Assembly (NCBI GenBank): GCA_903908245.1
Contig: CAIVRE010000018.1
Location: forward strand, 2,876 to 66,875
Source: Candidatus Omnitrophota bacterium
Lineage (GTDB): Bacteria; Omnitrophota; Gorgyraeia; Zapsychrales; Fredricksoniimonadaceae
Direction: 5' to 3'
DNA length: 64,000 nucleotides
Both the position numbers and the translations under genes were made by a program. How positions within the stretch are numbered: position 1 is the first letter of the stretch; each line of letters begins with the position of its first letter. This document shows positions 15,310-42,888 of the stretch, one piece after another. Below the pieces are notes generated by a model. That model did no database searches and had not been told where the DNA came from. It saw only the letters and a list, made by a program, of their open reading frames with translations.

Positions 15310-15310
15310 C

Positions 15311-15887: not shown

Positions 15888-15925
15888 TTTTCTTTTGCCT
15901 TTTTTGGTTCGATCCCAGAGGCTGT

Positions 15926-16441: not shown

Positions 16442-19227
<2,786 letters not shown>

Positions 19228-24690: not shown

Positions 24691-24718
24691 AAAACCTTTG
24701 CCGAACCAGGAGGCGCAC

Positions 24719-26246: not shown

Positions 26247-26329
26247 GGTTTTTACTTTTTTTCCCCCGAAATTTTCCTAGAATGAACGTATAAAACAAAA
26301 GATCAACCGTTCAAATAGAAGTCTATTCC

Positions 26330-28012
26330 TTGAATTCCCAGCGCTATCCTATACGCCTTGGCTTTATCTTTTCTGGCATATTCCTGCTTTTAGCGCTATT
26401 CACTGTCAAATTGTCCCTTATTCAGGTCTTCCGATCCAGTTATCTGGCAGATAAGGCGGATAAACAGCACAACCATGTGGTGGATCTGGAGCCTCGCCGG
26501 GGAACGATCTATGACCGGGAGTTGCGCGCGCTGGCGCTCAATGTCGCGGCGTATTCGCTCTTCGCGAACCCCAAGGCGATGACTCCGGAGCAGAAGTCGC
26601 TGGCCGCGCGAAAAGTTGCGGAGGTCCTTGGAGAAAGTGAAGCGTCCTTGCTCAGGAAAATGGAGAAGCCCAAAAATTTCGTGTGGCTGGCGCGGAAGGT
26701 CCCTCAGGCCGCATATGAAAGGTTAAAGACCGAGAAGATCCGCGGCCTGGCTTTTATTAAAGAAAGCAAAAGGTTTTACCCTAACGGGGAACTGGCCGCC
26801 CATGTGATCGGGTTCGCGAATATTGATAATGTCGGGCTTCAAGGTGTTGAGCTCGAGTTCAACAAGTACCTGCAGGGGACCAAAGGGGTGGCGCAGTTCC
26901 TGCGCGATGCCCGTCAGCGCGACCTGATGATCGAGAAGGACTTTATTGCGCCCAAGGACGGGCATGATATTGTGCTGACGATCGATGAGACCATTCAGTT
27001 CATCGCGGAAAAAGCCATTGAAAAGGCGTTCGTCAAATACAATGCCGCTTCCGCCAGTGTCATTGTCCTGAATCCGAAGACAGGAGAGGTGTTGGCGTTC
27101 GCAAACCGCCCGACCTTCCGTCCGGACGCGCCGGATAAAAGCCCGGTCGAGAACCGCACGAATCGCGCGGTGGCGTTTGTTTATGAACCAGGTTCTGTTT
27201 TCAAGATCGTGACAGCAACGGCCGCATTGGAAGAGGGCGTTACCAACGAGGAAGAGATTTTCTTTTGCGAGAACGGGAAATACCTGGTGGGGAACCATAT
27301 TCTTAAAGATGCGCATCCTAAAGGGAGGCTGACATTCCGCCAGGTCATAGAAGAGTCCAGCAATATCGGGACGGTCAAGGTGGCGCAGCGTCTTGGGCCG
27401 GACAAGATCTATGAGTATGCGCACCGGTTCCACTTTGGACAAAAGACCAACATCGGGATGACGGGAGAGGTCAGCGGCTTGTTAAAGCCGACCAGCCGCT
27501 GGTCGAAGACATCGATCGGCGCCATTCCTATCGGCCAGGAGGTAACGGTGACACCGGTGCAGCTGGTCATGGCTATTGCGGCTATCGCCAATGACGGGGT
27601 CATGATGAAGCCGTATTTTATAAAATATGTCAAGGCGCCGAATGGCATGGTCATTGAGGAGAATAAGCCCCAGGTGGTCGGACGGGTGATGCGCCCCGAA
27701 ATATCCCGGCGTGTGCGCAGTATCCTTCAGGGGGTCATTGATGAAGGAACGGCACAGATGGCCAAGATGAAGGATGTCCCTGCCGGCGGAAAGACAGGTA
27801 CCGCGCAAAAAGTGGTGGATGGCGTTTATTCGCACAGCAAATTCGTGGGGTCGTTCATCGGGTTTGCCCCGGTGGATGATGCGAAACTCGCGGTCGTGGT
27901 GACCGTGGATGAACCGCATCCGGCGTATTATGGCGGTGTGGTCGCCGGGCCGGTGTTCAAGGAGGTGGTGGAGGATTCATTGAAGTATCTGGCGGGGAGA
28001 AAAGGCCTTTAA
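26330..28012 (+). CDS. ftsI: peptidoglycan D,D-transpeptidase FtsI (class B PBP)
   Basis: N-terminal TM and PBP dimerisation domain, then a transpeptidase domain with SVFK (SxxK), SSN (SxN) and KTGTA (KTG). Confidence 0.85.
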   Translation: MNSQRYPIRLGFIFSGIFLLLALFTVKLSLIQVFRSSYLADKADKQHNHVVDLEPRRGTIYDRELRALALNVAAYSLFANPKAMTPEQKSLAARKVAEVLGESEASLLRKMEKPKNFVWLARKVPQAAYERLKTEKIRGLAFIKESKRFYPNGELAAHVIGFANIDNVGLQGVELEFNKYLQGTKGVAQFLRDARQRDLMIEKDFIAPKDGHDIVLTIDETIQFIAEKAIEKAFVKYNAASASVIVLNPKTGEVLAFANRPTFRPDAPDKSPVENRTNRAVAFVYEPGSVFKIVTATAALEEGVTNEEEIFFCENGKYLVGNHILKDAHPKGRLTFRQVIEESSNIGTVKVAQRLGPDKIYEYAHRFHFGQKTNIGMTGEVSGLLKPTSRWSKTSIGAIPIGQEVTVTPVQLVMAIAAIANDGVMMKPYFIKYVKAPNGMVIEENKPQVVGRVMRPEISRRVRSILQGVIDEGTAQMAKMKDVPAGGKTGTAQKVVDGVYSHSKFVGSFIGFAPVDDAKLAVVVTVDEPHPAYYGGVVAGPVFKEVVEDSLKYLAGRKGL

Positions 28013-28020
28013 AGGACAGT

Positions 28021-29553
28021 ATGGACAAAAAAACAGCTATTTTAAAGGTTAGCCTCGGTGTTGCGTTCATGGTGTTCTTTCTTTGGACGTTTTTTTCGTA
28101 TGTGCCTTTTAATATGGATGAGCTTTGTTCTTATCATGTGATCGCCTGCAATGAATATCCGTTGAACAAGCTCAATGTGTTCCGGGAGCGCTGTGATGCC
28201 TGCGACCTTTCGGTCCTGAAAGGCCCTTTTGTCCCCTTATTGACGTATTCGTATGTTGGAAGTTCTGCTGCTGCTGTTTATTATCCATTGTTCAAATTAT
28301 GGCGATCTCCGTATTCCATCAGATTCCTGGGGCTGCTGTTCCTGGCGGCGCAGGCGTTCCTTTTATATAAGATATTCCGTCTGGACCTCTTCTTCTGTTT
28401 CTTTTTCCTGTTGCTCTTCTTCCCGTATGCGTTTCAGCACATGGTTGATTTTGGGCCGAAGCTTCTGCAAACGACATCGATCTTTCTTGTTTTATATTTG
28501 TCGCGGCAGTGGCGCCTGGCGGCAGAGGCCGGATCGGGGAGCAGCTGGAAGTATCCCGCTTGCATAGGTGCGTTGATATTCCTGGGTGTGTGGACGAAGC
28601 TCGCGTATTTTCTTGTGGTGCCATCGATCCTTGTTCTTGTTGCGTATACTCTTTTTGAAGGGCGGGGGATGAGGGCTTTTGATTTGAAACAGTTCAAGCG
28701 CGGGTGGCTCTTCCTGGTTTTGACAGCGATCGTACCGAGTTACATTCTTTTGAATGGCGTTAATCGCTGGGGGGCAAAATATGCCAAGATCGCCGAGAAC
28801 GGGAAGTTTGTCCCATTATTCGATCTTGCCGGGTTGAGGGATCATTTTATAGCCCTTTCAAAATTCTTCACGAACCCGTTACAAAGTGCGCATGTGGTCT
28901 TTGAAGTAAAAGAGACCGCGACTTTTGCGGGAATATTCTTTTTGGTATTGATGGCCGGGTTTTTCTGTTTTGCTGTCTGGCGGATGTTTTCAAGCGGGAA
29001 AAGAGTCGCTTTTGTGGTATTGAATATAGCCCTTTTCTTTGTTGCATTGATCCTGATGGCGTATAACCAGAACGTTTGGGCCATGCATCATGTGGCGCTG
29101 GCATTCCCTTTTCTTCTTTTGGCTCTTTTTGATATCTTTTCCCAATGTTATAAGGACAAAGCGATGAAGATATTTCTTGCTGTCTTTATTTGTTCCAATC
29201 TTTTCTTTTATGGCGCTCTGACACAGGAAAAGCCTTTTGCGAACAGTTATCCGGGCCTGGTCCGTTTTAATGAATTTCTAAGCAAGGGGTATTCCAGGGA
29301 CCATGTTTTTGTTGTGATCGATTGGGGGATGTATTATTTGAAAAGCCTTTACGGCGAAAAGGATCAGTGCGTGATCTATATAGATCCTTTTACGGAAAAA
29401 GATGTGCCGGCGCTGAAGAAGATCCTTGAAACGACGAACAGAAGGCCGATGTTCATCGGCCGCAAGGACAGTTTTTATACCAGGGGGATCGCCGGGCATT
29501 TTACGGAAGTGACGCCCGGGTTTGATGTCGGCCCTTGGGCGGCCTGGCACTAG
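28021..29553 (+). CDS. polytopic membrane protein, putative GT-C-fold (ArnT/PMT-like) glycosyltransferase
   Basis: About 10-11 TM helices and a C-terminal soluble domain of about 100 aa. The first extracytoplasmic loop carries DExxxY (FNMDELCSYH), as in the PMT_2/ArnT family, plus 4 Cys. Local GC is visibly lower than in the flanking genes. Confidence 0.55.
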   Translation: MDKKTAILKVSLGVAFMVFFLWTFFSYVPFNMDELCSYHVIACNEYPLNKLNVFRERCDACDLSVLKGPFVPLLTYSYVGSSAAAVYYPLFKLWRSPYSIRFLGLLFLAAQAFLLYKIFRLDLFFCFFFLLLFFPYAFQHMVDFGPKLLQTTSIFLVLYLSRQWRLAAEAGSGSSWKYPACIGALIFLGVWTKLAYFLVVPSILVLVAYTLFEGRGMRAFDLKQFKRGWLFLVLTAIVPSYILLNGVNRWGAKYAKIAENGKFVPLFDLAGLRDHFIALSKFFTNPLQSAHVVFEVKETATFAGIFFLVLMAGFFCFAVWRMFSSGKRVAFVVLNIALFFVALILMAYNQNVWAMHHVALAFPFLLLALFDIFSQCYKDKAMKIFLAVFICSNLFFYGALTQEKPFANSYPGLVRFNEFLSKGYSRDHVFVVIDWGMYYLKSLYGEKDQCVIYIDPFTEKDVPALKKILETTNRRPMFIGRKDSFYTRGIAGHFTEVTPGFDVGPWAAWH

Positions 29554-29585
29554 TTTTTTCGCGCGCAAGATCTCGGCGAGGTTAA

Positions 29586-31007
29586 ATGCGGATATATCAT
29601 GTGGATGTTAACGCGGTTTGGGATGACTCCAGGCGAGTGACTCCGGGGAGTTTATTCGCGGCACTTGACGGCCCGGCCAGGAAGGGCGAGGAATTCATCC
29701 CGCAGGCTGTGGCTGGCGGGGCTTCGGTGATCGTATTGTCACGGGCCAGTGAAGCTGTATTCAGCCGCCAGTATCCGCAGGTCAAGTTCATCGGGGTGGA
29801 AGATCCCCGAATGGAGTTCAGGCAGGTCGTTGAGTCTTTTTACGGAAAGCCATCGGATAAGGTCAGGGTCATCGGGGTCACGGGAACGAACGGCAAGACA
29901 ACGATCACCTATTTCCTGGAGTCCATACTGGCTGCAGCGGGAAAGTCCTGCGGGGTTATCGGGACGGTCAATTATCGTGTGGCCGGTAAGGTTGTCCCGT
30001 CGACGAATACGACACCGGGCCTGTTGGACAATCAGATCTTTTTGAACGGGCTGGCTGCCGGGGGCATCCTTTATTCGGTGATGGAGGTTTCTTCGCATGC
30101 GCTTGATCAGGGGCGGGTGGACTTGATCGGGTTCAAGGGGGCTTTGTTCACGAACCTTACCGGCGATCATATCGACTATCATGGAACGATGGGGTCTTAT
30201 TTTGAAGCCAAGAGCCGGCTGTTCACAGGCCTTTCGGCGGATGCATATGCTGTTATTAATACCGATGATCTTTGGGGAAGAAAACTGGTGCCGTTGACGC
30301 GGGCCAGGGTCCTGACTTATGGTATTGACGAGGGGGCGGATGTTCGCGCAACGGCCATTGAGTCCGGGCGCAAGGGCGCGCGATTCGATGTTAAATTCCC
30401 CGGGGGAGAGGTTGAGATCAAGACCGTGTTCACGGGGAAGCATAATGTTTATAATATCTTGGCGGCGTTCGCGGCGGGCCTGGGCGAGGGGTTTGCGGCG
30501 GGTGTTATCAAAGAAGGGATAGAATCCCTTAAGAATGTCCCTGGCCGTCTGGAGCGGGTGGACTGCGGCCAGGAGTTTGATGTATTCATTGATTATGCGC
30601 ATACGGATGACGGGCTTAAGAATGTTCTGCAGGCTTTGCGGGAGGTCAGGCATAAGAAGCTGATCGTAGTGTTCGGCTGCGGAGGGGACCGCGACCGCAC
30701 CAAGCGCCCCCGGATGGGAACAGTGGCGTGTGAGCTGGCGGACTTTTCGATCATTACTTCGGATAATCCGCGCAGCGAGGACCCTCTGGGGATCATCCGT
30801 GAAGTGGTCCCCGGGTTCAGCAAGAAGACTTATGAGATCGTGGTCGAGCGTGAAGCGGCGATCCGCCGGGCGCTGGAATTGGCCGGGCCGGGAGACATTG
30901 TCCTTCTGGCCGGGAAAGGCCACGAGACATACCAGGTATTGAACGACAGGACCACTGATTGTGTCGAGAGGGATATTGTGGGCAGGATATTGTCAGAGAG
31001 GGGATAA
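29586..31007 (+). CDS. murE: UDP-N-acetylmuramoyl-L-alanyl-D-glutamate--2,6-diaminopimelate ligase
   Basis: Mur ligase P-loop GVTGTNGKTT, and the C-terminal DNPR motif (SDNPRSEDP) typical of meso-DAP-adding MurE. Confidence 0.9.
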   Translation: MRIYHVDVNAVWDDSRRVTPGSLFAALDGPARKGEEFIPQAVAGGASVIVLSRASEAVFSRQYPQVKFIGVEDPRMEFRQVVESFYGKPSDKVRVIGVTGTNGKTTITYFLESILAAAGKSCGVIGTVNYRVAGKVVPSTNTTPGLLDNQIFLNGLAAGGILYSVMEVSSHALDQGRVDLIGFKGALFTNLTGDHIDYHGTMGSYFEAKSRLFTGLSADAYAVINTDDLWGRKLVPLTRARVLTYGIDEGADVRATAIESGRKGARFDVKFPGGEVEIKTVFTGKHNVYNILAAFAAGLGEGFAAGVIKEGIESLKNVPGRLERVDCGQEFDVFIDYAHTDDGLKNVLQALREVRHKKLIVVFGCGGDRDRTKRPRMGTVACELADFSIITSDNPRSEDPLGIIREVVPGFSKKTYEIVVEREAAIRRALELAGPGDIVLLAGKGHETYQVLNDRTTDCVERDIVGRILSERG

Positions 31008-32371
31008 TGTTCAATGTCGCGGAGATCCTTGAAGTCACTGGCGGGAAATTATTGCAGGGGGCTGTGTCTTTGCGTGTGAACGGGGTCAGTACCGATACGC
31101 GCAAGGCTACCAAAGGCGATCTCTTTATTGCGATCAAGGGAGATAATTTTGACGGCCATGATTTTACGGCCAAGGCCGTTTGTAACGGGGCATTTGCTCT
31201 TCTGGTCAGCCGTGCGGATATTGAATGTCCTTTGGGCACGGCGGTTATCCTGGTCCAGGATACGGTCAAAGCCCTGGGTCTTCTTGCCAGGTATCATCGC
31301 GGGAGGTTTAAACTGCCGGTCATTGCCATTACCGGCAGCGCCGGGAAAACAACGACCAAGGAATTCATTGCCGCAGTCCTGGGGAAAAAATATCGTGTGC
31401 TTTATAACAAAGGCACAGAAAACAACCATATCGGGGTACCGATGACGCTGTTGCAGCTTAACAAGACCCATCAGGCTGCGGTCATTGAGGCGGGTACCAA
31501 TCATTTCGGGGAGATATCCTGGTTGGGCGAAGTCATTTGTCCGACGGTGGCTGTTTTTACCAATATCGGGCATTCGCACTTGGCCGGCCTGGAAAGCCCG
31601 GAGGGCGTTTTTAAAGAAAAAGTGACTTTGCTTGATCATCTGGCGAAGAACGGGACGGTTATCCTTAACAGTGATGATGAGCGTTTACGCGGGATCCTCA
31701 AGAGAAAGCCGAAGCCCAATATTGTCACTTACGGCGTCGAGCATAAAGCGGATATCAAGGCCATAGCGGTATATTCCAAAGGCAAGGGGCTGGAGGTTGA
31801 GCTGGACCGCGGGTTGAAGTTCAACCTGGCTGTGCCCGTGTGGGGGAATGTTGCCAATGCGCTGGCGGCTGTTGCGTGCGGCAAGCTTTTGAAGGTCCCT
31901 TTTAAGGGGATTGCATCGGCGTTGGGTCGGGTTGAGCCGGCAAAAGGCCGCCAGTGCTTCCATTCGGTCATGGGCGTGACCGTGATCGATGATACGTATA
32001 ACGCGAATCCGGTATCGTATCATAACGCAATCCGCACGTTGTCGCTTGTGCGGGGCCGTGGACGCACCTTCCTGGTGGCGGCGGATATGCTGGAGCTGGG
32101 CGGCCATTCGGAAGCCTTGCACGCGCAAGTCGGTGAGGCTGCTGCTGCCGCGGGGATCGATCATATTCTGACCATCGGCCGCTGGGCCGGGCTTGCAGGA
32201 GAAAAGGCGAAGAATATTGCCCCGTCAGTGTGGGTCAAGCATTATAGTAAACAGGAAGATATTTTTGTGGACCTCGGGACTTTGCTCCGGGAGGGCGATG
32301 TCGTTCTGGTGAAGGGGTCGCGCGGGATGCATATGGACCGGTTGGTTGAGAATTTGCTGGCAGTGAATTAA
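31007..32371 (+). CDS. murF: UDP-N-acetylmuramoyl-tripeptide--D-alanyl-D-alanine ligase
   Basis: Mur ligase P-loop GSAGKTTTKE. The gene order is murE-murF-mraY. The start overlaps the murE stop (TAATG). Confidence 0.9.
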   Translation: MFNVAEILEVTGGKLLQGAVSLRVNGVSTDTRKATKGDLFIAIKGDNFDGHDFTAKAVCNGAFALLVSRADIECPLGTAVILVQDTVKALGLLARYHRGRFKLPVIAITGSAGKTTTKEFIAAVLGKKYRVLYNKGTENNHIGVPMTLLQLNKTHQAAVIEAGTNHFGEISWLGEVICPTVAVFTNIGHSHLAGLESPEGVFKEKVTLLDHLAKNGTVILNSDDERLRGILKRKPKPNIVTYGVEHKADIKAIAVYSKGKGLEVELDRGLKFNLAVPVWGNVANALAAVACGKLLKVPFKGIASALGRVEPAKGRQCFHSVMGVTVIDDTYNANPVSYHNAIRTLSLVRGRGRTFLVAADMLELGGHSEALHAQVGEAAAAAGIDHILTIGRWAGLAGEKAKNIAPSVWVKHYSKQEDIFVDLGTLLREGDVVLVKGSRGMHMDRLVENLLAVN

Positions 32372-32396
32372 CCCGGATCAATCCGAGAGGCTGGAT

Positions 32397-33488
32397 ATGT
32401 TTTATTTTTTGTCCCAATTCAGGTATGAATTCTTTCCGTTGAATATTTTTAAATACATCACTTTTCGCGCCGGCCTGGCGGCCGTGACCACCTTTCTGAT
32501 CATGGTTGTCATAGGGCCATGGTTCATCCGGAAACTGGGGGAATGGGGCCTGGGGGAGAAGCCGGTGCTGGGAGGAGGAAGGGAAGCAGTTCTGGGGGCA
32601 GAGCTTAAACCCAAGGTCGGGACTCCGACGATGGGGGGGGTGCTGATCATCGGGAGTATTTTATTGTCCGTACTGCTTTGGGCGGACATGACCAATCCGT
32701 ATATCCTGCTGACGATGTTCACGATGGTCTGGATGGCGCTGGTCGGGTTTGCGGATGATTATATGAAGATCTCCGGCATGAACAAGAACGGGATGCCGGC
32801 GCGGACGAAAATGATATGCCAGGCGATCCTTGCGATCATTGTAAGTTTTTATGTTTATGCCTATCTTGACGTGTCAACGGCCCTGGATGTCCCTTTTATG
32901 AAGAAAATGGTGATCAACCTCGGGCCTTTCTATATGGTGCTGGTCATGCTGATCCTGATAGGCTCGTCCAACGCGGTCAACCTGACCGACGGGCTTGACG
33001 GGTTGGCGATCGGATGCACGCTGCTGGTGGCATTGACACTGGCCATTCTTTGTTATGTAACGGGGAATGTGCATATCAGTGATTATCTGTTTATCCCCTA
33101 TATCCCCGGCTCCGGAGAGCTCACGATCTTTTGTACGGCGATCGTGGGGGCCAGCCTGGGGTTCTTGTGGTTCAACGCCTATCCGGCAACGGTGTTCATG
33201 GGGGATGTCGGCGCGCTGGCTCTGGGGGGGACGCTGGGGATCATAGCGGTTTTTATCAAGAAGGAGTTCCTGCTTGTTATTCTCGGCGGGGTATTTGTCT
33301 GGGAGGCTTTGTCGGTCATTATGCAGGTGACATCGTTTAAATTGACCGGCAAGCGGATATTCCTGTGTTCTCCCTACCATCATCATCTTCAGAAGTTGAA
33401 CTGGAAAGAATCCAAGATCGTGATCCGTTTCTGGATCGTGGGGATCATCCTGGCGTTTGTGACATTGACGACGTTGAAAATCCGTTAA
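32397..33488 (+). CDS. mraY: phospho-N-acetylmuramoyl-pentapeptide-transferase
   Basis: 10-TM protein with the DDxxD-like motifs (GFADDYMKI, NAVNLTDGLDGLA). Confidence 0.95.
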   Translation: MFYFLSQFRYEFFPLNIFKYITFRAGLAAVTTFLIMVVIGPWFIRKLGEWGLGEKPVLGGGREAVLGAELKPKVGTPTMGGVLIIGSILLSVLLWADMTNPYILLTMFTMVWMALVGFADDYMKISGMNKNGMPARTKMICQAILAIIVSFYVYAYLDVSTALDVPFMKKMVINLGPFYMVLVMLILIGSSNAVNLTDGLDGLAIGCTLLVALTLAILCYVTGNVHISDYLFIPYIPGSGELTIFCTAIVGASLGFLWFNAYPATVFMGDVGALALGGTLGIIAVFIKKEFLLVILGGVFVWEALSVIMQVTSFKLTGKRIFLCSPYHHHLQKLNWKESKIVIRFWIVGIILAFVTLTTLKIR

Positions 33489-33497
33489 CGGGTTATT

Positions 33498-34745
33498 ATG
33501 GATATAAGGAATAAAAGGGTCTGTATCATCGGCGCGGCGAAAAGCGGGGTTGCGGCTGCGAACCTGGCGCAAGCTATGGGCGGGGCCGTCCGGATCTCGG
33601 ACAGCCAGCCTTTGGCAAAGCTCGACCGGGCGTTGGCGGGGCTCAAGGACCGCGGCCGTGTTGAGGTTGAAGCGGGGGGGCATACCCGGGATTTTGTGAC
33701 CGCGAGCGACCTGGTGGTCGCAAGCCCCGGTGTCTGGAAGGATGCGCCGCCGCTCGAATGGGCGCGCGCGGCCGGTATCCCGGTGATGGGAGAGATCGAG
33801 TTCGCGTGGCGTTTTTGCACCAAGCCGGTGATCGCGGTAACGGGATCGAACGGCAAGACAACAACGGTCTCGCTGATCGCCCGTGTCCTGGAGGCCGGCG
33901 GCAAGAAAGTTTCTTTATGCGGCAATATCGGTACGCCCTTCTCCGATAAGGTGATCGACGGGGATGTCGAGATCTTTGTGGTGGAGATCAGTTCATTTCA
34001 GCTGGAGCTTTGCACGACGTTCCGTCCAAAGGTCGCGCTGATCACGAATTTCAGCCAGAACCATCTGGACCGGCACCCGACGATGGAGGAGTATTTCGAG
34101 GCCAAAAAGCGCCTGTTCATGAACCAGACGGCGGATGATCACGCGATCTTGAATGCACGGGACCCTTTGGTCGCCAGGCTGAAAGATGAAATCAGTTCCC
34201 GGGTCAGTTTCTTTAATGCTGAGGGGGAGAAAGACAATCCGAATTATCTTGCGGTGTTGGCCGTCGCGCGGATATTGGGAATTGCAGAGGCGGTGACAGG
34301 AAAGGTTCTTGATGAGTTTACCGGCGTTGAGCATCGTTTGGAGCATGTGCGGTCTCTGGATGGGGTCGAATATATTAATGATTCCAAGTCCACAACGGCC
34401 GAGGCCGGGCGTTGGGCGCTTGAGCGGATGCAGAAGCCTGTCGTGCTTATTGTCGGAGGATTTGACAAGCACATTGATTATGCCTGTTTACGGGATCTGG
34501 CTTGTCAGAAAGTTCGCGTGATGGTGGCGTTTGGCGCCATCAGGCAGCAGTTCAAGGATACATTCGGGGATGTTCTTGCGGTTGAGGTCATTGATGGCGG
34601 GTTGGATTCGGCCGTGGCATATGCGCGTAGTGTGGCGCATTCCGGTGATTGCGTTCTGCTGTCCCCGATGACTTCAAGTTTTGATATGTTCAAGAAGTTC
34701 GAGCATCGGGGTGAAGTGTTCAAGGATATTGTGAGGGCTTTTTGA
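33498..34745 (+). CDS. murD: UDP-N-acetylmuramoylalanine--D-glutamate ligase
   Basis: Rossmann N-terminal domain (VCIIGAAKSG) and Mur ligase P-loop GSNGKTTT. Confidence 0.9.
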   Translation: MDIRNKRVCIIGAAKSGVAAANLAQAMGGAVRISDSQPLAKLDRALAGLKDRGRVEVEAGGHTRDFVTASDLVVASPGVWKDAPPLEWARAAGIPVMGEIEFAWRFCTKPVIAVTGSNGKTTTVSLIARVLEAGGKKVSLCGNIGTPFSDKVIDGDVEIFVVEISSFQLELCTTFRPKVALITNFSQNHLDRHPTMEEYFEAKKRLFMNQTADDHAILNARDPLVARLKDEISSRVSFFNAEGEKDNPNYLAVLAVARILGIAEAVTGKVLDEFTGVEHRLEHVRSLDGVEYINDSKSTTAEAGRWALERMQKPVVLIVGGFDKHIDYACLRDLACQKVRVMVAFGAIRQQFKDTFGDVLAVEVIDGGLDSAVAYARSVAHSGDCVLLSPMTSSFDMFKKFEHRGEVFKDIVRAF

Positions 34746-35842
34746 TGCGTGAGACCAGGGCAGCGTTATTCATGATCTTCAGTATCCTCATGGCGATCGG
34801 CGTGGTGATGATCTACAGTTCAAGCGGGATCTACGCGCTTGAGGTTATGCACAACAGTTCCTATTTTCTTTTCAGGCATCTGATGTTCCTGGGGATCGGG
34901 ACGGGCCTGATGTTCGGCGTTATGCTGATGGACTATCGCCTTCTGCGTAAGTGGGCGCGGCCGATCCTGGTGCTGATCATCGTGATGCTGGTGCTGGTCC
35001 TTGTCCCCGGCATCGGCAAGATATCTTCGGGCGCCCGCCGCTGGTTCAATCTCGGGCCAATTAATTTTCAGCCTTCCGAAATGGCCAAGGTCGGTCTGAT
35101 CATTTATCTGGCGGATTTTTGCGCGCGCAAGCAGGATTGCATCCGGAATTTATGGAAAGGGTTTGTCCCTGCGTTCCTGGTGATGGGGGTATTATCGGTC
35201 CTGATCATGAAGCAGCCGGATATGGGCAATACTGTCCTTGTATTCCTGATCACGATGACGATGTTGTTTGTCGCCGGGGCACGGCTGAAGCACCTGGTCA
35301 ATGTCCTTTGGCCGGCGATCCCTTTGGGGGTTTTCCTGGTATTGATGGAGCCGTACCGCATACGCCGTGTTGTTGCGTTCATGAACCCGTGGGAGGACCC
35401 CCAGGGCGCGGGGTTCCAGTTGTCCCAGTCGCAGATCGCGCTGGGTTCCGGGGGGTTCTGGGGGGTAGGCCTGGGCAGGAGCGAGCAGAAGCTGTTGTAC
35501 CTTCCGGCGGCGCACACGGATTTTATTTTTTCCATTATCGGTGAAGAGCTGGGATTCCTCGGGGCCCTGGCGGTGATCGTCCTGTTCGCCCTGTTCCTCT
35601 GGCAGGTTATCCGGATCCTGCGTCAGACGGTCGATCCGTTCGGCTATTATCTGATCTTCGGGATCCTGATGATGCTCAGTGTCCAGGTGGTCGTGAATTT
35701 CGGGGTCAGTATCGGCGCTTTGCCAACGAAAGGGCTTCCTCTGCCGTTCATCAGTTATGGGGGGTCCGCCTTGATCTTCAATATGATGGTGGTCGGGCTT
35801 ATTCTTAACGTTTCGCGCACACAGGACCTTGGCAGTGGATAA
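34745..35842 (+). CDS. ftsW: FtsW (SEDS-family peptidoglycan glycosyltransferase)
   Basis: 10-TM SEDS protein with the conserved FQPSE.KV and LPxxHTDFIFS motifs. The ATG overlaps the murD stop. Confidence 0.85.
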   Translation: MRETRAALFMIFSILMAIGVVMIYSSSGIYALEVMHNSSYFLFRHLMFLGIGTGLMFGVMLMDYRLLRKWARPILVLIIVMLVLVLVPGIGKISSGARRWFNLGPINFQPSEMAKVGLIIYLADFCARKQDCIRNLWKGFVPAFLVMGVLSVLIMKQPDMGNTVLVFLITMTMLFVAGARLKHLVNVLWPAIPLGVFLVLMEPYRIRRVVAFMNPWEDPQGAGFQLSQSQIALGSGGFWGVGLGRSEQKLLYLPAAHTDFIFSIIGEELGFLGALAVIVLFALFLWQVIRILRQTVDPFGYYLIFGILMMLSVQVVVNFGVSIGALPTKGLPLPFISYGGSALIFNMMVVGLILNVSRTQDLGSG

Positions 35843-36917
35843 GAACAAGAGTTTAATTATTGCGACAGGCGGCACCGGCGGACATATTTATCCGGCGATT
35901 GTGACTGCGGAGGAATTGCGCCGGCGCGGGTGGAATGTCCGGTTCATCGGCGCGTTTGGCCCCGCAGGGGATAAACTTGCTTTTCGGGGGTTTGAATACA
36001 AGGATATTGTCGTGAAGGGGTTTGTTTCGAAAGACCTGAAGGCGATGTTTTCGGCGTTGATCTGCCTTTTAAAGGCGTGCATTTCCTGTGCAAAAGATAT
36101 TTCCCGTGCGAGGGCGGATGTGATCCTCGGTTTTGGCGGGTACAGCTCTTTTCCGGCCGTGATCGCCGGAAAGCTGATGGGCGTCAAAACCATGATCCAT
36201 GAGCAGAATGTTTGCCCCGGTGAGGCCAACAAGGTCCTGGGCGGGATCGTAAAAAAGGTCGCCATCAGTTTCAAGGATACCCAGAGTTTTTTTGCCGGAC
36301 GGGATGTTGTTTGGACCGGATATCCGATGCGGTCGCTCGACCCCGGGCGGTCGCGTAAAGAGGTGCTCCGGGTATTTGGCCTGCAGCAAGGGCGTAAGAC
36401 CATTCTTGTTTTTGGGGGAAGCCAGGGCAGCCGGGCGATCAATCATGCCGTGCTTGATTGCCTTGAAATGGTCAGCCGGGACATGCCATGGCAGGTTTTT
36501 CATCTTGCCGGTAAGGGCGGGGCGGAAGAATTAAGGCCGCGTTACGCCAAACTTCCATTCCCTTTTTATTTGCAGGATTATATGGAGAACATGTCGGATG
36601 CTTACGCGGTCGCCGACCTGGTGATCGCCCGTTCCGGCGCGGGGACTGTTACAGAGCTTGGCCTTTTGGGGGTTCCGGCCATTTTGATCCCGTATCCTTA
36701 TGCGAATGGTCATCAGGAAGCCAACGCGCAGGTTCTGGCACGTCGTTCGGCCGCTGTAATAATTCGGGAAAAAGACTTGAACCCCGCCATGCTTGGGGAT
36801 AAGATTTTTTCCGGGCTTGAAACGGGCTCGTCCGCAGAAGTGCTACGCCAGGGATTATCCAAGGATATTGTATCTGACGCAGTTATTCGGCTCGCTGATG
36901 AGGTTGAATTATTGTGA
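35829..36917 (+). CDS. murG: undecaprenyldiphospho-muramoylpentapeptide beta-N-acetylglucosaminyltransferase
   Basis: N-terminal G-loop ATGGTGGHIYPA, with a C-terminal GT-B domain. Confidence 0.85.
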   Translation: MAVDKNKSLIIATGGTGGHIYPAIVTAEELRRRGWNVRFIGAFGPAGDKLAFRGFEYKDIVVKGFVSKDLKAMFSALICLLKACISCAKDISRARADVILGFGGYSSFPAVIAGKLMGVKTMIHEQNVCPGEANKVLGGIVKKVAISFKDTQSFFAGRDVVWTGYPMRSLDPGRSRKEVLRVFGLQQGRKTILVFGGSQGSRAINHAVLDCLEMVSRDMPWQVFHLAGKGGAEELRPRYAKLPFPFYLQDYMENMSDAYAVADLVIARSGAGTVTELGLLGVPAILIPYPYANGHQEANAQVLARRSAAVIIREKDLNPAMLGDKIFSGLETGSSAEVLRQGLSKDIVSDAVIRLADEVELL

Positions 36918-37699
36918 CCATGCTCCGGTGTGCTTTATTGGCATTATTGTTCATGTTCCCGGCTTTGATGGCCAGTTCCGCCGAATGGCATGAGGTCAAG
37001 GCCGAGCATTTTATCGTTTATTACAAGAATGCCTCGGCCCGTTTTGTGGAAAATACGGTGTCCAGGGCGGAAGAGGATTATAAGGCTACGGCCACAAGTC
37101 TGGGATTCACCCGGTATAAGGGCTGGACCTGGAATGGCCGCGTGAAGATCTATATTTACGATAATGCCGAAGATTACAAAGCTTCATCGGGGCTTGGGTG
37201 GTCGGCAGGGTCGGTGCAGACCAGGTCGAAGGTCATTTCGGCATATCCGTCGGCGCACGGGTTCTTTGATTCCACATTGCCCCATGAGATCGGGCATATT
37301 ATTTTTCGCGATTTTGTCGGGGAGGATGCGGCGGTCCCTTTGTGGCTCGAGGAGGGTGTCGCGATGTTCCAGGAGGAGTCCGGGCGCTGGGGTTCGGATG
37401 ATGAGGTGCGGCGCATCATGGAGGAAAACAAGTTCATTTCCCTTGCGGACCTGACGGGCCTTGAATTGAACCGGAATTCCGACCCGGAGCTGGTGCGTAT
37501 TTTTTATGTTGAGGCGGCCAGCCTGGTCAGTTTTTTGCTTGATGAAGGAGAGATGTACCGTTTCGCGCGCCTTTGCCGGGAATTAAAAAGCGGTACGCGT
37601 TTTGAATGGGCATTGAAGAAAGCTTATATGAAGTATCAGACGATCAATGCCCTCGAGGCGGCCTGGAAGGACCATTTAAGCTATGAAAAGAAAAAATAA
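36914..37699 (+). CDS. secreted putative gluzincin-type metallopeptidase (Peptidase_MA-like)
   Basis: Signal peptide (ALLALLFMFPALMASSA). HEIGH zinc-binding motif, with a downstream Glu in LEEG about 18 residues after the second His, giving HEXXH-X18-E. Both ends overlap neighbours: murG at the start and murC-ddl at the stop. Confidence 0.55.
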   Translation: MTMLRCALLALLFMFPALMASSAEWHEVKAEHFIVYYKNASARFVENTVSRAEEDYKATATSLGFTRYKGWTWNGRVKIYIYDNAEDYKASSGLGWSAGSVQTRSKVISAYPSAHGFFDSTLPHEIGHIIFRDFVGEDAAVPLWLEEGVAMFQEESGRWGSDDEVRRIMEENKFISLADLTGLELNRNSDPELVRIFYVEAASLVSFLLDEGEMYRFARLCRELKSGTRFEWALKKAYMKYQTINALEAAWKDHLSYEKKK

Positions 37700-40085
37700 T
37701 CTTAAGACCAAAATAAAAAAATATCATTTTATAGGGATCGGCGGAATGGGGATGGGGAATCTGGCCCTGTTGATGCTGGCCAAGGGGTATTCTATCAGCG
37801 GGTCCGATGAGAAAGAGGGCGATCTGACGCGCCAGCTGCGGGACAGGGGCGCGAAGGTGTATATCGGCCATGACCTGCGTAATATTGACGGTGCCGATTG
37901 CGTGGTATATTCTTCGGCGATCTCGGCAAGCAACCCGGAAATGTTCGAGGCGGTGCGTTTGCATATGCCGATCCTTAAAAGGGCGGAGTTGCTGGCCCAA
38001 TTGGTGAACAAGGAAGTGGGCATCACTGTTGCCGGTGCCCACGGCAAGACCACAACATCCTCCATGGCGTCCCTGCTTTTGATCAACGCCGGGCTGAATC
38101 CTACCACCGCTATCGGGGGGGTCGTCCTCCAGGGATATAACGCGAATCTCGGGATAGGGCGGCATATTGTGGCGGAAGTTGATGAGAGCGACGGTTCTTT
38201 CCTGTATTTTTCTCCGCATTTCTCGATCATCACCAATATCGATCGCGAGCATCTGGATCATTACAAGACCATGGATAATGTCCGGGGGGCTTATGCCAAG
38301 TTCGTGGAGCGCACGGTGCCGGGTGGCGTTGTTATTGCCTGCGGGGATAATCAGGAGCTGCGCGTGATCGTTGAGAATGGCGGGCGCCGTTATGTGACTT
38401 ATGGTTTTGCCGATGATAACGAGTGGGTGGCGACGAATATTCAGTGTGATGCCAACGGTTCTTCTTATGATTGCTATTATCATCAGCAGATGATCGGGCG
38501 TTTTGGCCTTACGGTGCCGGGGAAACACAATATCCTCAATTCCCTTGCGGTCATTGTGCTGGGGTTTGAGCTGAAGATCGAGGTCCCGGTCATCATGGAA
38601 ACGCTGGCGGCTTTTCAGGGGGTCAAGCGCCGCTTTGAGCGCAAGGGGGAAGTGGGAGGGGTCCTGGTGGTGGATGATTATGGCCATCATCCGACGGAGA
38701 TCGCGGCGACCCTTCAGGCCGCGCGTACGCTGGGCCGCAAGCGCCTGATCGTGGCGTTTCAGCCGCATCGTTATTCCCGTACCCAGCTTCTGATGAGCGA
38801 GTTCGCGGCTTGTTTTACCCTGGCGGATCAGTTGATCCTGACGGATATCTATTCCGCCGGAGAAAAGCCTGTTGAAGGGGTTACGACGGAGGTCCTCCTG
38901 GAAAAGGTGCATGCCCAGCGTCCCCAGGAGCTCGCGTATTTGAAGAAAGAGGCGATCGTCCCTCATTTATTATCCATTGTCCATCCGGGAGACCTGGTCT
39001 TGACGCTTGGCGCCGGTGATATCACACGGATATCCGATGAGCTGGTCCGTGCGCTCGAGGGGCGCGTCGGGTTCGATCATATTCCGCCGGCACGGGAGCG
39101 TTCGGTCGATGAAATCAGGGCGCTCGGTACCATTGGTGTTGTCCTGGGCGGTTGTTCGTCAGAGAGGGAGGTTTCCCTCCGGTCGGGGGGCGCGGTGGTC
39201 AAGGCTTTGACAGGAGCGGGATGCCGGGTCAAGGTCCTCGACCTGGTCACTGAAGATCGCGACCTGGTCAAGGAGTGGTTCAGATCGGAGAAGATCGATG
39301 TGGTGTTCATCGCATTGCACGGGCGGTTCGGCGAGGATGGCGGGCTGCAGGCAATACTCGACGAGATGGATATCCCTTATCAGGGCTGCGGTCCTTCGGC
39401 CAGTTACGCGGCGTTCAATAAATCGGTGGCCCAGAAGCAGTTCGAAGACAAGGGCGTGCGTACTCCAAGGACTGTGACCATTAAAGGGGCCGCAGCCTTG
39501 TGCCTTGATGATATTTTCAAGGGGGTCGGGCCTTTTCCGATGGTGGTAAAGCCCGCGTGTGAAGGGTCGAGCATCGGGGTCGTTCTTGCAAGGGACGAGG
39601 CCTTGTTACGCGATGCCGTGCTCAAGGCGGAAGTGTTCGGCAGGGATATTGTTATCCAGGAGTATATCCGTGGCCGGGAACTGACGGTCGGCATCCTGGG
39701 CAGCTGTCCGCTGCCGGTCGTCGAGATCTGTGTCCCGCCGGAGGATGGCCTGATCTTTGATGTTTCGGCGAAATATGAAAAGACTACGACACGGTATATT
39801 GTTCCGGCCGATCTTTCGCCGGATGTGACGGCCGATGTCCAGGCAGAGGCTCTTAAGGCTTACCGGGCGCTTCGTTGCGAAGGGTTCGGGAGAGTGGATG
39901 TCCTGCTTGACGCGAATAATATCCCTGTGGTCCTGGAGATCAATACCATTCCCGGGTTCACTGCGACCAGCCTTTTGCCCAAAGCGGCTCGTGCTGCCGG
40001 ACTGGATTTTACGCAGCTGTGCCTGACACTGGTTGAAATGGCGTATGGCAAAAAGAAATCAGAATCGATCTCCCATCAGCATTGA
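37683..40085 (+). CDS. murC: bifunctional UDP-N-acetylmuramate--L-alanine ligase / D-alanine--D-alanine ligase (MurC-Ddl fusion)
   Basis: 800 aa. The N-half is MurC (IGIGGMGMG, GAHGKTTT). The C-half from about residue 470 is Ddl, an ATP-grasp domain (GVVLGGCSSEREVSLRSG...KPACEGSSIGV...). Confidence 0.85.
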   Translation: MKRKNNLKTKIKKYHFIGIGGMGMGNLALLMLAKGYSISGSDEKEGDLTRQLRDRGAKVYIGHDLRNIDGADCVVYSSAISASNPEMFEAVRLHMPILKRAELLAQLVNKEVGITVAGAHGKTTTSSMASLLLINAGLNPTTAIGGVVLQGYNANLGIGRHIVAEVDESDGSFLYFSPHFSIITNIDREHLDHYKTMDNVRGAYAKFVERTVPGGVVIACGDNQELRVIVENGGRRYVTYGFADDNEWVATNIQCDANGSSYDCYYHQQMIGRFGLTVPGKHNILNSLAVIVLGFELKIEVPVIMETLAAFQGVKRRFERKGEVGGVLVVDDYGHHPTEIAATLQAARTLGRKRLIVAFQPHRYSRTQLLMSEFAACFTLADQLILTDIYSAGEKPVEGVTTEVLLEKVHAQRPQELAYLKKEAIVPHLLSIVHPGDLVLTLGAGDITRISDELVRALEGRVGFDHIPPARERSVDEIRALGTIGVVLGGCSSEREVSLRSGGAVVKALTGAGCRVKVLDLVTEDRDLVKEWFRSEKIDVVFIALHGRFGEDGGLQAILDEMDIPYQGCGPSASYAAFNKSVAQKQFEDKGVRTPRTVTIKGAAALCLDDIFKGVGPFPMVVKPACEGSSIGVVLARDEALLRDAVLKAEVFGRDIVIQEYIRGRELTVGILGSCPLPVVEICVPPEDGLIFDVSAKYEKTTTRYIVPADLSPDVTADVQAEALKAYRALRCEGFGRVDVLLDANNIPVVLEINTIPGFTATSLLPKAARAAGLDFTQLCLTLVEMAYGKKKSESISHQH

Positions 40086-40827
40086 CCTTGTGCGTTTCGG
40101 GGTCATTGCCGTTTTTGTTCTGTTGGCGCTGGTCATCTCCGGGGTCGCCCTGACGTCATTTGTGCGTCATTCCGGCCTCTTTGTGATACGGGATGTTGTG
40201 ATCAGCGAAAGCCTGGGGGAGGTCAATGTCCCCGAGCTTGCGAAGTTGAAGGGGCAGAATATTTTTCTGGTCGATCTTGAAAAGGTCGAGCAGAAGGTGA
40301 TCTCCCGGTATCCGGGGATCGCCGGCCTCGAGGTCCTGCGGCGTTTCCCGGATGAGATATTAGTGGCGGGGGCGCGCCGGACAGCGTTCGCGGCGGCATT
40401 GATGGATGGTAAAAGTGTGCTGCTGTCCCGTGACGGTTGTTTTATCGGCGCTTTGGGAAAAGAGGATGGGCCCCTTGCCGTTATCAAAGGGATGCGGCAT
40501 CAGAAGGTTTCGTCCGGTATAATGCTTAACGATCCTTTTGGCCTGGAAGCCTTGAAAGCGGTTGAACTGGTCTATAAAGACCCGGCATTGGCTGCACTGC
40601 ATTTGCGCGGCCTGGATGTGAGCGACCCGAACAAGATCGTGTTCACTTTTGGCCTGGCGGAAGATCCGGCCAGATTCGAGGTTATGGTGGATAAGGATAA
40701 TTACGCGTTAAAGCTCAAGACCCTTTCGGTCATGGTCGCCAGGACGGAGCTCGCGGTCAATGAGGTTAAATATATCGACCTCAGGTTTGAAACGCCTGTG
40801 ATCGGCAAGAGGAAGACAAAAAAATGA
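40033..40827 (+). CDS. ftsQ: cell division protein FtsQ (POTRA-containing)
   Basis: Short basic cytoplasmic tail, one TM helix, then a POTRA-like/beta-rich periplasmic domain, in the canonical position before ftsA. The start is uncertain: ATG 40033 overlaps murC-ddl, and GTG 40090 is the alternative. Confidence 0.65.
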   Translation: MKWRMAKRNQNRSPISIDLVRFGVIAVFVLLALVISGVALTSFVRHSGLFVIRDVVISESLGEVNVPELAKLKGQNIFLVDLEKVEQKVISRYPGIAGLEVLRRFPDEILVAGARRTAFAAALMDGKSVLLSRDGCFIGALGKEDGPLAVIKGMRHQKVSSGIMLNDPFGLEALKAVELVYKDPALAALHLRGLDVSDPNKIVFTFGLAEDPARFEVMVDKDNYALKLKTLSVMVARTELAVNEVKYIDLRFETPVIGKRKTKK

Positions 40828-42077
40828 AAAAAGTCAGGGATCTTGTCGGACAGTTTTTTCGGGAGCGCATTTTCTGCGGGCTGGATATCGGGTCGCAGAA
40901 GATCAAGGCCAGCCTTTGCAAGGTCCAGGATGCGGAGAATTTTGAATTGCTGGGGGTCTATGAAGTGGATACCCGGGGGTTCAAGGACGCTTCGGTCAAT
41001 GACCTGGGCGAGTTCTCGGGGGCGATCAGTGCGGCGCTCGACGGCCTGGCCAGGAAGACCAAGACAGGGTCCAGGTTCCGGGATGTTTATCTTGGCCTCG
41101 GAGGAGAGTTGGTGGAGACCCGGATGAGCCGGGCGGTCATTCCGCTCACCGAGCGCGGGAATAAAGTGATCGTTCCCAGTGATGTGAAGGCGGCCCGTCA
41201 GCAGGCGCGCCTGCTGGGAATGCGGCTTGAGGAAGATGTCGTTGAAGATTTTGTCCGGCAGTTCAAGATCGACGATATCAATGTGGCGCTCAATCCGGTC
41301 GGGCTTTACGGGCGCAAGCTGGAGGTCGAGGTCCTGCTGGTGCTGATAAACAATACACGGTTGCGGAATATTCAGAAGGCGGTCAAACAGGCCGGCTATG
41401 AGGTCAATAAAGTGTTCTTTAACGGTGCGGCGTTGAGTGAGGCGTCCATTGGCCATCAGAGGCGCAATGATGGTTGCGTGCTGGTCGATGTGGGGGCCAG
41501 GAAGACGGAAATATATATTTTCAAGGAAGGGCTTCTTAAACATTTCAATTTTGCCTTGTTCGGCGGGGACCGGATCACGGCCCGTCTGGCGAAAGAGCTG
41601 AAGATCTCTTTCGCCCTGGCGGAAGACATTAAAAAAAGTTATGGCCGCCTGGGTGATAAAACGCAGCATGGTGCGGAGGATATCATTATCAAGAAGGACC
41701 AGGGGTTTATCCCTATCAGGCATGCCGCTATCCGCGGTCCGATCGATGAAGAGGTCGGTGTGCTGATCGAGCATATCCGTGACAGTATCGCGGCTTCAGG
41801 GTATGAAGGGCAGATCCGCTCCGGTATTGTTATGGCGGGCGGAGGGGCTTTGATGCCGGGCCTGATGGAGCATGTTGAGATCTCTCTTGGCCTTCCTGTT
41901 ACAGCGGCGCGCAGTATCCCCGGCCTTGTCCCGGCGTTGTTGTATGCGGTATCCACCAGCATCGCGGAAATGGGGTACAAGGGCAGCATGCGGTATGTCT
42001 TTGATACACGAAAACCGAAGGACTGGTGGGATGCCCTGGTGTCCAGGTTCAGGGAAATGTGCAACGAGTATTTTTGA
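40824..42077 (+). CDS. ftsA: cell division protein FtsA (actin-like ATPase)
   Basis: SHS2/actin-fold motifs (GLDIGSQKIKA, VLVDVGARKTEI, IVMAGGGALMPGL), a C-terminal amphipathic helix, 417 aa. It follows ftsQ. It could alternatively be PilM-like, but the context favours FtsA. Confidence 0.75.
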   Translation: MKKVRDLVGQFFRERIFCGLDIGSQKIKASLCKVQDAENFELLGVYEVDTRGFKDASVNDLGEFSGAISAALDGLARKTKTGSRFRDVYLGLGGELVETRMSRAVIPLTERGNKVIVPSDVKAARQQARLLGMRLEEDVVEDFVRQFKIDDINVALNPVGLYGRKLEVEVLLVLINNTRLRNIQKAVKQAGYEVNKVFFNGAALSEASIGHQRRNDGCVLVDVGARKTEIYIFKEGLLKHFNFALFGGDRITARLAKELKISFALAEDIKKSYGRLGDKTQHGAEDIIIKKDQGFIPIRHAAIRGPIDEEVGVLIEHIRDSIAASGYEGQIRSGIVMAGGGALMPGLMEHVEISLGLPVTAARSIPGLVPALLYAVSTSIAEMGYKGSMRYVFDTRKPKDWWDALVSRFREMCNEYF

Positions 42078-42085
42078 CGGCTGTT

Positions 42086-42445
42086 TTATTCGTCGTTGAT
42101 GTTGCGGTCTGTCCTGCGGCGCGCGAGGTTGAAGTCCATGTTCTTGAGGACACTGCGGATCTTGAGCATCCCGGAGAACATGAACAGCATCCAGAAAGAG
42201 TTGAGGAGCATCAGGAATACGATCAAAAGCCCAAGGTAGTTCTGGTTGAGCAGAAGCCGTTCCGTGAGCGATATTTTTGCGATATCGGCCGTTGTATTAA
42301 TGGTGTTGAGGGAAAGGATAAAGAACACGACGAACGCCACGATCAGGATCATTTCAAAGAAAAGCACGTAGAAGTGGCGTACGAACCACTGATTGGAGCG
42401 GTTATCCCACTGACGGACCTGGTTCATGAAAGAAGTTAATGACAT
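42086..42445 (-). CDS. hypothetical two-TM membrane protein
   Basis: Minus-strand ORF convergent with ftsA, with two long hydrophobic helices. Start taken at MSLTSF, but the longer start at 42493 is possible. The local sequence is AT-richer than its surroundings. Confidence 0.4.
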   Translation of the reverse strand: MSLTSFMNQVRQWDNRSNQWFVRHFYVLFFEMILIVAFVVFFILSLNTINTTADIAKISLTERLLLNQNYLGLLIVFLMLLNSFWMLFMFSGMLKIRSVLKNMDFNLARRRTDRNINDE

Positions 42446-42510
42446 GGGAATCATTTTATGTGTTTTGTCGATGAGTGTCAATTTTTTAAACATATAACCC
42501 TTGTGAGAAC

Positions 42511-42888
42511 ATGATCCCCAAGATCCTTATTGTTGACGATGACCGGATCAATATCACCCTGCTGAAATTCACGCTTAAAGAGAAGCGTTATGATGTGCTG
42601 ACCGCGGGCGACGGCATTGAAGGTTTAAAGGCGGTGGCGGAGTTCAGGCCCGACCTGATCATCCTTGATGTCCAGATGCCTAAGATGAATGGTTTTGAGT
42701 TCATGTCCGAGTTGAAATGCCTGCCGGAGGGAGGGGCTACGCCGGTCATTATGCTGACATCCAATGACAATATGCAGGACATGTTCTATTCGGAAGGGGT
42801 GAAGGGCTATTTTGTGAAACCGGTCGATCCGCTGAAGATGGAAGCTAGGATCCGTCAGCTTCTGGGGATCACGGGTGAGATCCTTTAA
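42511..42888 (+). CDS. single-domain response regulator (CheY-like receiver)
   Basis: Acidic pocket DDD, the phospho-acceptor Asp in LIILDVQMP, Thr in MLTSN, and Lys in FVKP. It has no output domain. Confidence 0.8.
   Translation: MIPKILIVDDDRINITLLKFTLKEKRYDVLTAGDGIEGLKAVAEFRPDLIILDVQMPKMNGFEFMSELKCLPEGGATPVIMLTSNDNMQDMFYSEGVKGYFVKPVDPLKMEARIRQLLGITGEIL

Follow-up and report, generated by a model that had tools for sequence, protein, structure and literature searches.

In the canonical division and cell wall (dcw) gene cluster, ftsZ lies directly 3' of ftsA. The closest described departures from this arrangement are those of the Planctomycetes-Verrucomicrobia-Chlamydiae (PVC) group, in which the Chlamydiae and most Planctomycetes have no ftsZ in the cluster and have lost ftsA as well, keeping the dcw peptidoglycan genes, ftsW, ftsI, ftsQ and ftsK, together with a rodZ-like gene. 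Here we analyze a 64-kb stretch of DNA (the window) from a freshwater metagenome-assembled genome (MAG) of an Omnitrophota bacterium. This PVC-related locus resembles those of the Chlamydiae and Planctomycetes in all of the retained genes (its rodZ-like gene spans positions 5984-6880) and in the absence of ftsZ from the cluster, but it differs from them in having kept ftsA, under clear constraint. The sequence analyzed covers 84 kb of the source contig (the window plus 10 kb past either end). The place directly 3' of ftsA, where ftsZ would be expected, is taken by a convergent gene encoding a small protein with two transmembrane (TM) segments.

We propose that the ftsA-ftsZ pair has been broken in this lineage, with ftsZ likely lost, and that division is based on FtsA, with the small membrane protein, a predicted hairpin, as its partner. 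We assign this reading a probability of roughly 0.5. The features at the 3' end of the cluster, in window positions, are:

40824..42077, + strand: ftsA, 417 amino acids (aa), last gene of the cluster, with TIGR01174 and Pfam matches
42078..42085, no strand: 8-nt spacer between the convergent stop codons
42086..42445, - strand: small two-TM gene, 119 aa, Omnitrophota-restricted family
42453..42481, - strand: sigma-70-like promoter, a consensus match only
42511..42888, + strand: single-domain receiver, with a Pfam Response_reg match
42888-43892: queA, after the receiver

Gene order at the 3' end of the dcw cluster

A preliminary description of this DNA had the cluster ending at ftsA with a small membrane gene converging on it, and the coordinates confirm this layout (ftsA, 40824-42077; small gene, 42086-42445 on the minus strand), with the small gene ending 8 nt beyond the ftsA stop at 42077. 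The same description reported that ftsZ was missing after ftsA, and this too was borne out. In the window, the best tblastn match to Escherichia coli FtsZ has an E-value of 0.28 and the GGGTG[ST]G-type tubulin signature is absent from all reading frames. No Tubulin/FtsZ Pfam match was detected in the 10 kb past either window end on the 144-kb source contig.

An alignment of six FtsA sequences was used to retrieve 80 metagenomic loci encoding FtsA proteins 32-75% identical to that of the window, and further loci were obtained through look-ups of small-protein and FtsA homologs. Searches with E. coli FtsZ (tblastn, E <= 1e-5) returned no ftsZ beside ftsA in about 85 related loci with flanks of up to 10 kb, including L097-L099. 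The sole locus presenting ftsZ was an unrelated Lachnospiraceae control (L012), in which it directly follows ftsA, and its recovery there indicates that the test works. The analysis shows that, throughout the sampled phylum, the dcw cluster no longer contains ftsZ.

A deep clade (L085-L096), with FtsA proteins 30-35% identical to that of the window, presents ftsA followed by yggS, which encodes a pyridoxal phosphate-binding protein, by proC and by a gene resembling those for methylthioadenosine phosphorylase. In many other bacteria yggS and proC sit downstream of ftsZ, and the ftsA-yggS-proC order of this clade looks like a clean excision of ftsZ.

The pairing of ftsA with the small gene is conserved well beyond the window. 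A profile hidden Markov model (HMM) built from 31 homologs of the small protein matched 66 loci, nearly all of which carry the small gene on the opposite strand right after ftsA. When FtsA sequences are clustered at 70% identity, a convergent small gene is found no more than 400 nt from ftsA in 34 of the 44 informative lineages, defined as those with enough sequence downstream of ftsA, and clustering at 90% identity yields 44 of 58 lineages with a convergent small gene. The two stop codons lie a median of about 20 nt apart, and 10 of 52 loci have overlapping genes. The genes beyond the small gene vary: the window has the receiver and queA, L013 has glycine-cleavage genes, L015 a HIT-family gene and L098 unknown genes, which indicates that rearrangement has taken place repeatedly beside the small gene and rarely between it and ftsA. 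Among the exceptions, L075/L076 carry a giant ORF of 2035 aa (11221-17328) inserted between ftsA and the small gene, which there lies 6.8 kb away, still convergent, and in L078, L082 and L083 ftsA is followed by sugar-epimerase-type genes. The arrangement is phylum-wide and no local accident. The preliminary description had put the small protein forward as a candidate division factor; what can now be added to that proposal is the conserved pairing across the phylum, and it is by linkage only that a division role is suggested.

FtsA and its FtsZ-contact residues

The window FtsA scores 200.6 bits against the NCBIfam equivalog model TIGR01174 (cut-off, 175.85), 62.1 bits against PF14450 (cut-off, 31.8) and 37.3 bits against PF02491 (cut-off, 25.4), with the SHS2_FTSA domain (the 1C insert) spanning residues 97-173. 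The location of its gene, after ftsQ and at the end of the dcw cluster, is as expected of ftsA. Residues D21, G23, D222, G224, T228 and G339-G341 are invariant across six aligned FtsA proteins (33-86% identity), and the invariance of the nucleotide-binding glycines and aspartates extends to relatives with just 33-41% identity. The C-terminal amphipathic tail typically reads R.KELYQEYF (FREMCNEYF in the window), and 70 of 78 sequences end in EYF. This tail resembles that of E. coli FtsA (...WLRKEF), and its conservation points to a putative membrane-targeting helix. Judged from its sequence, this protein is a genuine FtsA ortholog under clear constraint. FtsA also polymerizes and, in model bacteria, recruits late divisome proteins via its 1C domain; the preliminary statement that FtsA normally exists only to tether FtsZ was thus too strong.

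The residues through which FtsA grips FtsZ present a different picture. In Thermotoga maritima FtsA, R301 and E304 of subdomain 2B are said to form salt bridges with the FtsZ tail in the FtsA-FtsZ peptide complex, and their E. coli counterparts, R300 and E303, were reportedly found genetically. These are the residues that we take to be the FtsZ-tail contacts, and whose alignment columns were tested. The reference set comprised FtsA from E. coli, X. poinarii, V. maritimus, S. aureus, T. maritima and a Lachnospiraceae bacterium. The T. maritima sequence used has 419 residues, the length of the PDB chain, and its R301/E304 share columns with E. coli R300/E303. All six references present arginine at the R300 column, within the motif I-E-[AP]-R. 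Arginine is found at this column in only 2 of 78 distinct Omnitrophota-type FtsA proteins, the commonest residue being glutamate (26 sequences, giving I-E-P-E), followed by valine (9), glutamine (8) and serine (8). The E303 column is likewise variable in the lineage (K in 15 sequences, E in 12, Q in 9, L in 9, and others). The hydrophobic columns flanking both positions are still conserved, indicating that the alignment register is sound. The FtsA-FtsZ tail contact is made of three salt bridges, according to a published paper. A loss of constraint on exactly the FtsZ-contact residues of an otherwise well-conserved FtsA is what would be expected without an FtsZ tail to bind. It would weaken the notion that this protein tethers FtsZ, and not its assignment as an FtsA ortholog.

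Published surveys contain related observations. Pende et al. 2021 (PMC8178401) tabulate five Omnitrophica genomes in their supplement, in four of which FtsZ went undetected. Three of these four (Ca. Omnitrophus magneticus, RIFOXYB12_FULL_50_7 and WOR_2 SM23_29) have FtsA without FtsZ or SepF, and the other has none of the three proteins; a figure legend in the same paper counts the Omnitrophica among the FtsZ-less PVC phyla. Similarly, Table S1 of Rivas-Marin et al. 2016 (PMC5147048) lists FtsA without FtsZ for Ca. O. magneticus, with FtsZ only in OLB16. The preliminary description had offered division without FtsZ as one of two alternatives, and this alternative receives indirect support from the absence of an adjacent ftsZ in the related loci, from these surveys and from the decay of the FtsA contact residues. 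The genome of this bacterium is probably devoid of FtsZ, and the majority of the genomes sampled have most likely lost ftsZ.

The other alternative is that the cluster has merely fragmented: ftsZ would reside elsewhere in the genome, FtsA would still tether FtsZ, perhaps through other contacts, and the small protein would have no part in division, remaining beside ftsA by inertia. The sequence covered amounts to 84 kb of the genome, and the short intergenic spacing seen across the whole window fits a compact genome. OLB16, which is filed as Omnitrophica, is alone in PMC8178401 in having FtsZ, encoded adjacent to FtsA. PVC reviews call the Omnitrophica FtsZ-positive on the basis of one genome, and a 2025 iScience study groups the Omnitrophota with phyla conserving dcw genes, which adds to the case for an FtsZ-using phylum and makes the literature on FtsZ in the Omnitrophota inconsistent. 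The published absences, moreover, derive from incomplete MAGs or single-amplified genomes. Set against this are the lack of detectable FtsZ in four of the five surveyed genomes, three of which do have FtsA, and the loss of the contact arginine in 76 of 78 FtsA proteins. Inertia, for its part, fits poorly with a far side that has been reshuffled repeatedly next to an ftsA junction kept in 34 of 44 lineages. On balance, we consider fragmentation somewhat unlikely.

The small membrane protein and its possible roles

The small gene is real and no chance open reading frame (ORF), as its 31 homologs (39-100% identity) attest. Gene callers place its start at 42493, yielding a longer minus-strand ORF (42086-42493) of 135 aa. 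The 119-aa form (42086-42445) given in the preliminary description is the better call, since homologs of 113-122 aa begin at the corresponding methionine, and since a sigma-70-like promoter adjoins that ATG and would otherwise fall inside the 135-aa ORF. This promoter (42481 to 42453, minus strand) consists of TTGACA, a 17-nt spacer and TAAAAT, matching 11 of 12 consensus positions and ending 8 nt before the ATG at 42445, which implies a leaderless or near-leaderless mRNA; shuffled sequence would be expected to yield 1.4 sigma-70-like sites, and one was found. The gene was also described as AT-richer than its surroundings, which is correct in direction and mild in extent (48.3% GC, compared with 55.2% for ftsA and 53.5% for the window), as expected of a protein with many F, I, L and N residues. 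A 137-aa ORF on the plus strand (42026-42439) lies antisense to it and is most likely a shadow ORF.

Twelve columns are invariant in the family. They include R11, D14 and W20 of the N-terminal cytoplasmic helix, along with S83 and F84, which belong to an LLNSFW polar motif within the second TM segment (TM2). The C-terminal helix follows the pattern LK[DN]I.[FY].L.R. The family is narrow: in a set of 1.84 billion proteins it accounts for 30 representative clusters, almost all of them standalone and 115-130 aa long. The search for homologs and their genomic contexts that had been suggested for the 119-aa protein yielded a family, mostly convergent with ftsA, which is uncharacterized and whose observed source names are Omnitrophota. 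Pfam searches with the 31 members at E-values up to 10 matched 50 families, the best 25 of which amount to scattered sub-threshold transmembrane noise, and NCBIfam returned no match. The best hit of a PDB profile search was again transmembrane noise (E = 0.55), and Foldseek comparison against the PDB retrieved generic helical hairpins only (best E = 0.75).

The protein presents two hydrophobic segments, at approximately residues 25-46 and 70-93. Its termini carry a net positive charge (+2 and +3), and its loop is neutral. AlphaFold predicts two long helices, spanning residues 3-54 and 60-116, with a mean predicted local distance difference test score of 80. According to these predictions, the protein would form a membrane hairpin with both termini in the cytoplasm and with helices extending into the cytoplasm at both ends. 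The polar residues within the membrane and the cytoplasmic extensions would suit a small adaptor between membrane proteins and a cytoplasmic partner, as far as can be inferred from the sequence. Two more specific resemblances were considered and rejected. The C-terminal tail, LKNMDFNLARRR, does not qualify as a mimic of the FtsZ C-terminal peptide (DIPAFLRK), the conserved residues being out of register. The N-terminus, which is predicted to be helical and continuous with the first TM segment (TM1), shares only a vague D-[FY]...R similarity with the FtsN-type FtsA-binding motif.

Beyond the small gene, the product of the divergent receiver gene scores 89.3 bits against Pfam Response_reg (PF00072; cut-off, 30.2). 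It is 125 aa long, with the domain at residues 5-114 and no output domain, and it falls below the cut-off of the DivK-like model NF045717 (60.5 bits; cut-off, 160). It had been described as unrelated, a view that requires correction: in about 20 related loci, including the distant L016, L022, L037, L062 and L073, the small gene has this receiver next to it in divergent orientation, which suggests that the two genes and ftsA made up an ancestral neighborhood. The small protein and the receiver could accordingly be thought of as a membrane-linked signaling or stress module with no relation to FtsA, its position serving termination or insulation only. The short promoter region that both genes share, in distant loci as in close ones, is compatible with such a module, and the small protein has no domain pointing to the divisome. 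The receiver, however, is absent in most lineages in which the linkage to ftsA persists, making ftsA the more constant neighbor. Furthermore, the 8 nt between stop codons in the window and the overlap in 10 loci leave no place for a simple insulator with its own terminator. A signaling module unrelated to FtsA therefore appears improbable.

The convergent arrangement also bears on how the small gene may be expressed. A terminator scan produced weak sites only, all of them inside the small gene and none credible in the intergenic spacer, where 8 nt leave no room for a terminator. Because the 3' ends abut or overlap in this manner, transcripts reading through from the dcw cluster would run antisense across the small gene, the expression of which might be coupled, perhaps inversely, to dcw transcription. 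Under a reversed interpretation of its function, the small gene would code for an inhibitor or checkpoint protein of division, repressed by antisense transcripts from the dcw cluster and made only when dcw transcription falls. The abutting or overlapping 3' ends, the lack of a credible intergenic terminator and an apparent promoter of its own all agree with this scheme. The same architecture fits a positive factor equally well, and overlapping stop codons are common in compact genomes, so that we regard an inhibitor as quite improbable, the least probable of the explanations put forward here.

Under the interpretation we favor, the ancestral ftsA-ftsZ pair would have been broken in the Omnitrophota lineage, and division would be FtsZ-independent, as in the Chlamydiae and Planctomycetes, with FtsA kept, unlike in those relatives. 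FtsA retains its ATP-binding actin fold, the 1C domain and a putative membrane-binding C-terminal helix, and would have dispensed with the R/E pair that grips the FtsZ peptide. The hairpin protein could then be a membrane partner, anchor, organizer or regulator of FtsA, roles suggested by linkage, with its cytoplasmic helices contacting FtsA and TM2 contacting the transmembrane segments of FtsW, FtsI, FtsQ or FtsL. The neighboring single-domain receiver may control the hairpin protein.

Several observations count against this interpretation. Gene position alone ties the small protein to division, and no homology of the small protein to any divisome protein is detectable. The small gene is not next to ftsA in 10 of the 44 lineages. 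The close spacing of the small gene and ftsA may be no more than a consequence of genome compactness. Among the FtsA sequences compared, the EYF tail does not co-vary with the presence of the small gene. Lastly, R300 and E303 are presumed to be the FtsZ-tail contacts, and FtsZ could bind differently. Extending the proposal to the phylum, most Omnitrophota might divide by an FtsA-centered divisome without FtsZ, in which the hairpin would organize or activate FtsA filaments, possibly under control by receiver phosphorylation; we hold this extended version to be tentative and rather doubtful. If true, it would be a third way of dividing without FtsZ among PVC bacteria, and the first to rely on FtsA.

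Cluster layout and comparison with known division proteins

The large genes around the ftsA locus are all on the plus strand and together form the dcw cluster, the order of which is canonical up to ftsA (mraZ-mraW-ftsL-ftsI-murE-murF-mraY-murD-ftsW-murG-murC-ddl-ftsQ-ftsA). It deviates through a murC-ddl fusion and through two inserts specific to the lineage, at 28021-29553 and 36914-37699. The remaining features of the cluster are:

24253..40085, + strand: upstream part of the dcw cluster, from Pfam scans, gene tables and ORFs
24253-24690, + strand: mraZ
25003-25938, + strand: mraW
25935-26246, + strand: ftsL-like gene
26330-28012, + strand: ftsI
28021-29553, + strand: 510-aa membrane protein, between ftsI and murE
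29586-31007, + strand: murE
30959-32371, + strand: murF
32397-33488, + strand: mraY
33498-34745, + strand: murD
34742-35842, + strand: ftsW
35829-36917, + strand: murG
36914-37699, + strand: Peptidase_MA_2 gene
37683-40085, + strand: murC-ddl fusion, 800 aa
40045..40827, + strand: ftsQ, with a POTRA_1 match and a weak FtsQ_DivIB_C match

The ftsQ start at 40045 is the choice of the gene callers, and the ORF could begin at 40033. The inserted 510-aa membrane protein has a weak, sub-threshold TgpA_N match and no NCBIfam match. The Peptidase_MA_2 gene, between murG and murC, is also found in the distant loci L013, L015 and L098, and not in L016 and L097. The murC-ddl fusion is common to the window and its close relatives (L001-L011), and the two genes are separate in the distant L013, L015, L016, L097 and L098. 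A MurC-Ddl fusion is also known in Chlamydia. Elsewhere in the window, ftsK (3642-5966) is directly followed by the rodZ-like gene, the product of which contains HTH_25 and RodZ_C domains; RodZ has been implicated in the FtsZ-independent division of Chlamydia.

Identical copies of the FtsA and the small protein occur in stratified-lake metagenome contigs and in a 144-kb MAG contig (ENA ERZ1426827). On the latter, a 389-aa ParA/MipZ-like ATPase with an AMPK1_CBM carbohydrate-binding domain is encoded just upstream of window position 1, followed by a 97-aa protein of the MamF_MmsF family, and the same pair is present in L100 (1469-2924). Source-named relatives of the window FtsA and small protein all bear Candidatus Omnitrophica or Omnitrophota labels, with the exception of L011 (DYOU01000015.1), which is named Candidatus Elulimicrobium at NCBI and assigned to the Patescibacteria group in the NCBI taxonomy. 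The FtsA of L011 is 76% identical to that of the window, and its entire gene neighborhood is common to Omnitrophota-named genomes, so that, on these sequences, its filing looks like a naming conflict.

Small membrane proteins with comparable traits have been described in several divisomes. CrgA, from the Actinobacteria, is a protein of approximately 90-120 aa that crosses the membrane twice and has both ends in the cytoplasm, proposed to bridge the cytoskeleton and peptidoglycan synthesis in the divisome. The Omnitrophota protein resembles it in being small and lineage-restricted, with two TM segments and predicted cytoplasmic termini, but crgA is unlinked to ftsA, and CrgA works in cells that use FtsZ. 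YlmG/YggT offers a positional parallel, as a small two-TM protein encoded at the distal dcw end, downstream of ftsZ, in Gram-positive and cyanobacterial clusters. In those clusters, however, ylmG is co-oriented with ftsZ-sepF, whereas the small gene of the Omnitrophota converges on ftsA. Neither CrgA (PF06781) nor YGGT (PF02325) is among the best 25 of the 50 Pfam families matched by the 31 family members at E-values up to 10. The type of role proposed here is closest to that of the gamma-proteobacterial FtsN and ZipA, lineage-restricted membrane proteins whose cytoplasmic segments engage FtsA or FtsZ. These are bitopic and contain large additional domains (SPOR and ZipA_C), in contrast with the bare hairpin of the Omnitrophota, which bears no sequence resemblance to them, and the basic, unstructured tail of FtsN differs from the predicted helical N-terminus of the small protein.

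At the level of the phylum, the Omnitrophica rows of PMC8178401 and PMC5147048 agree with the present results in reporting FtsA detected and FtsZ and SepF undetected. They differ in that they record presence and absence from few incomplete genomes, are taken up in the papers themselves only by a figure legend, and include no gene order, contact-residue decay or ftsA-linked membrane protein. The occurrence of FtsA without FtsZ in the Omnitrophica is hence not new, having already been tabulated in PMC8178401. New, within the literature searched, are the gene order seen across the phylum, the decayed FtsZ-binding site of FtsA and the hairpin protein linked to ftsA. These results expose a contradiction in the PVC literature over FtsZ in the Omnitrophota, and turn a presence/absence entry in a supplementary table into concrete, testable protein pairs. 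Compared with the Chlamydiae and Planctomycetes, the Omnitrophota would constitute a different case, in which FtsA remains under selection, its FtsZ-binding residues have been released from constraint and a conserved membrane protein stands as its candidate partner.

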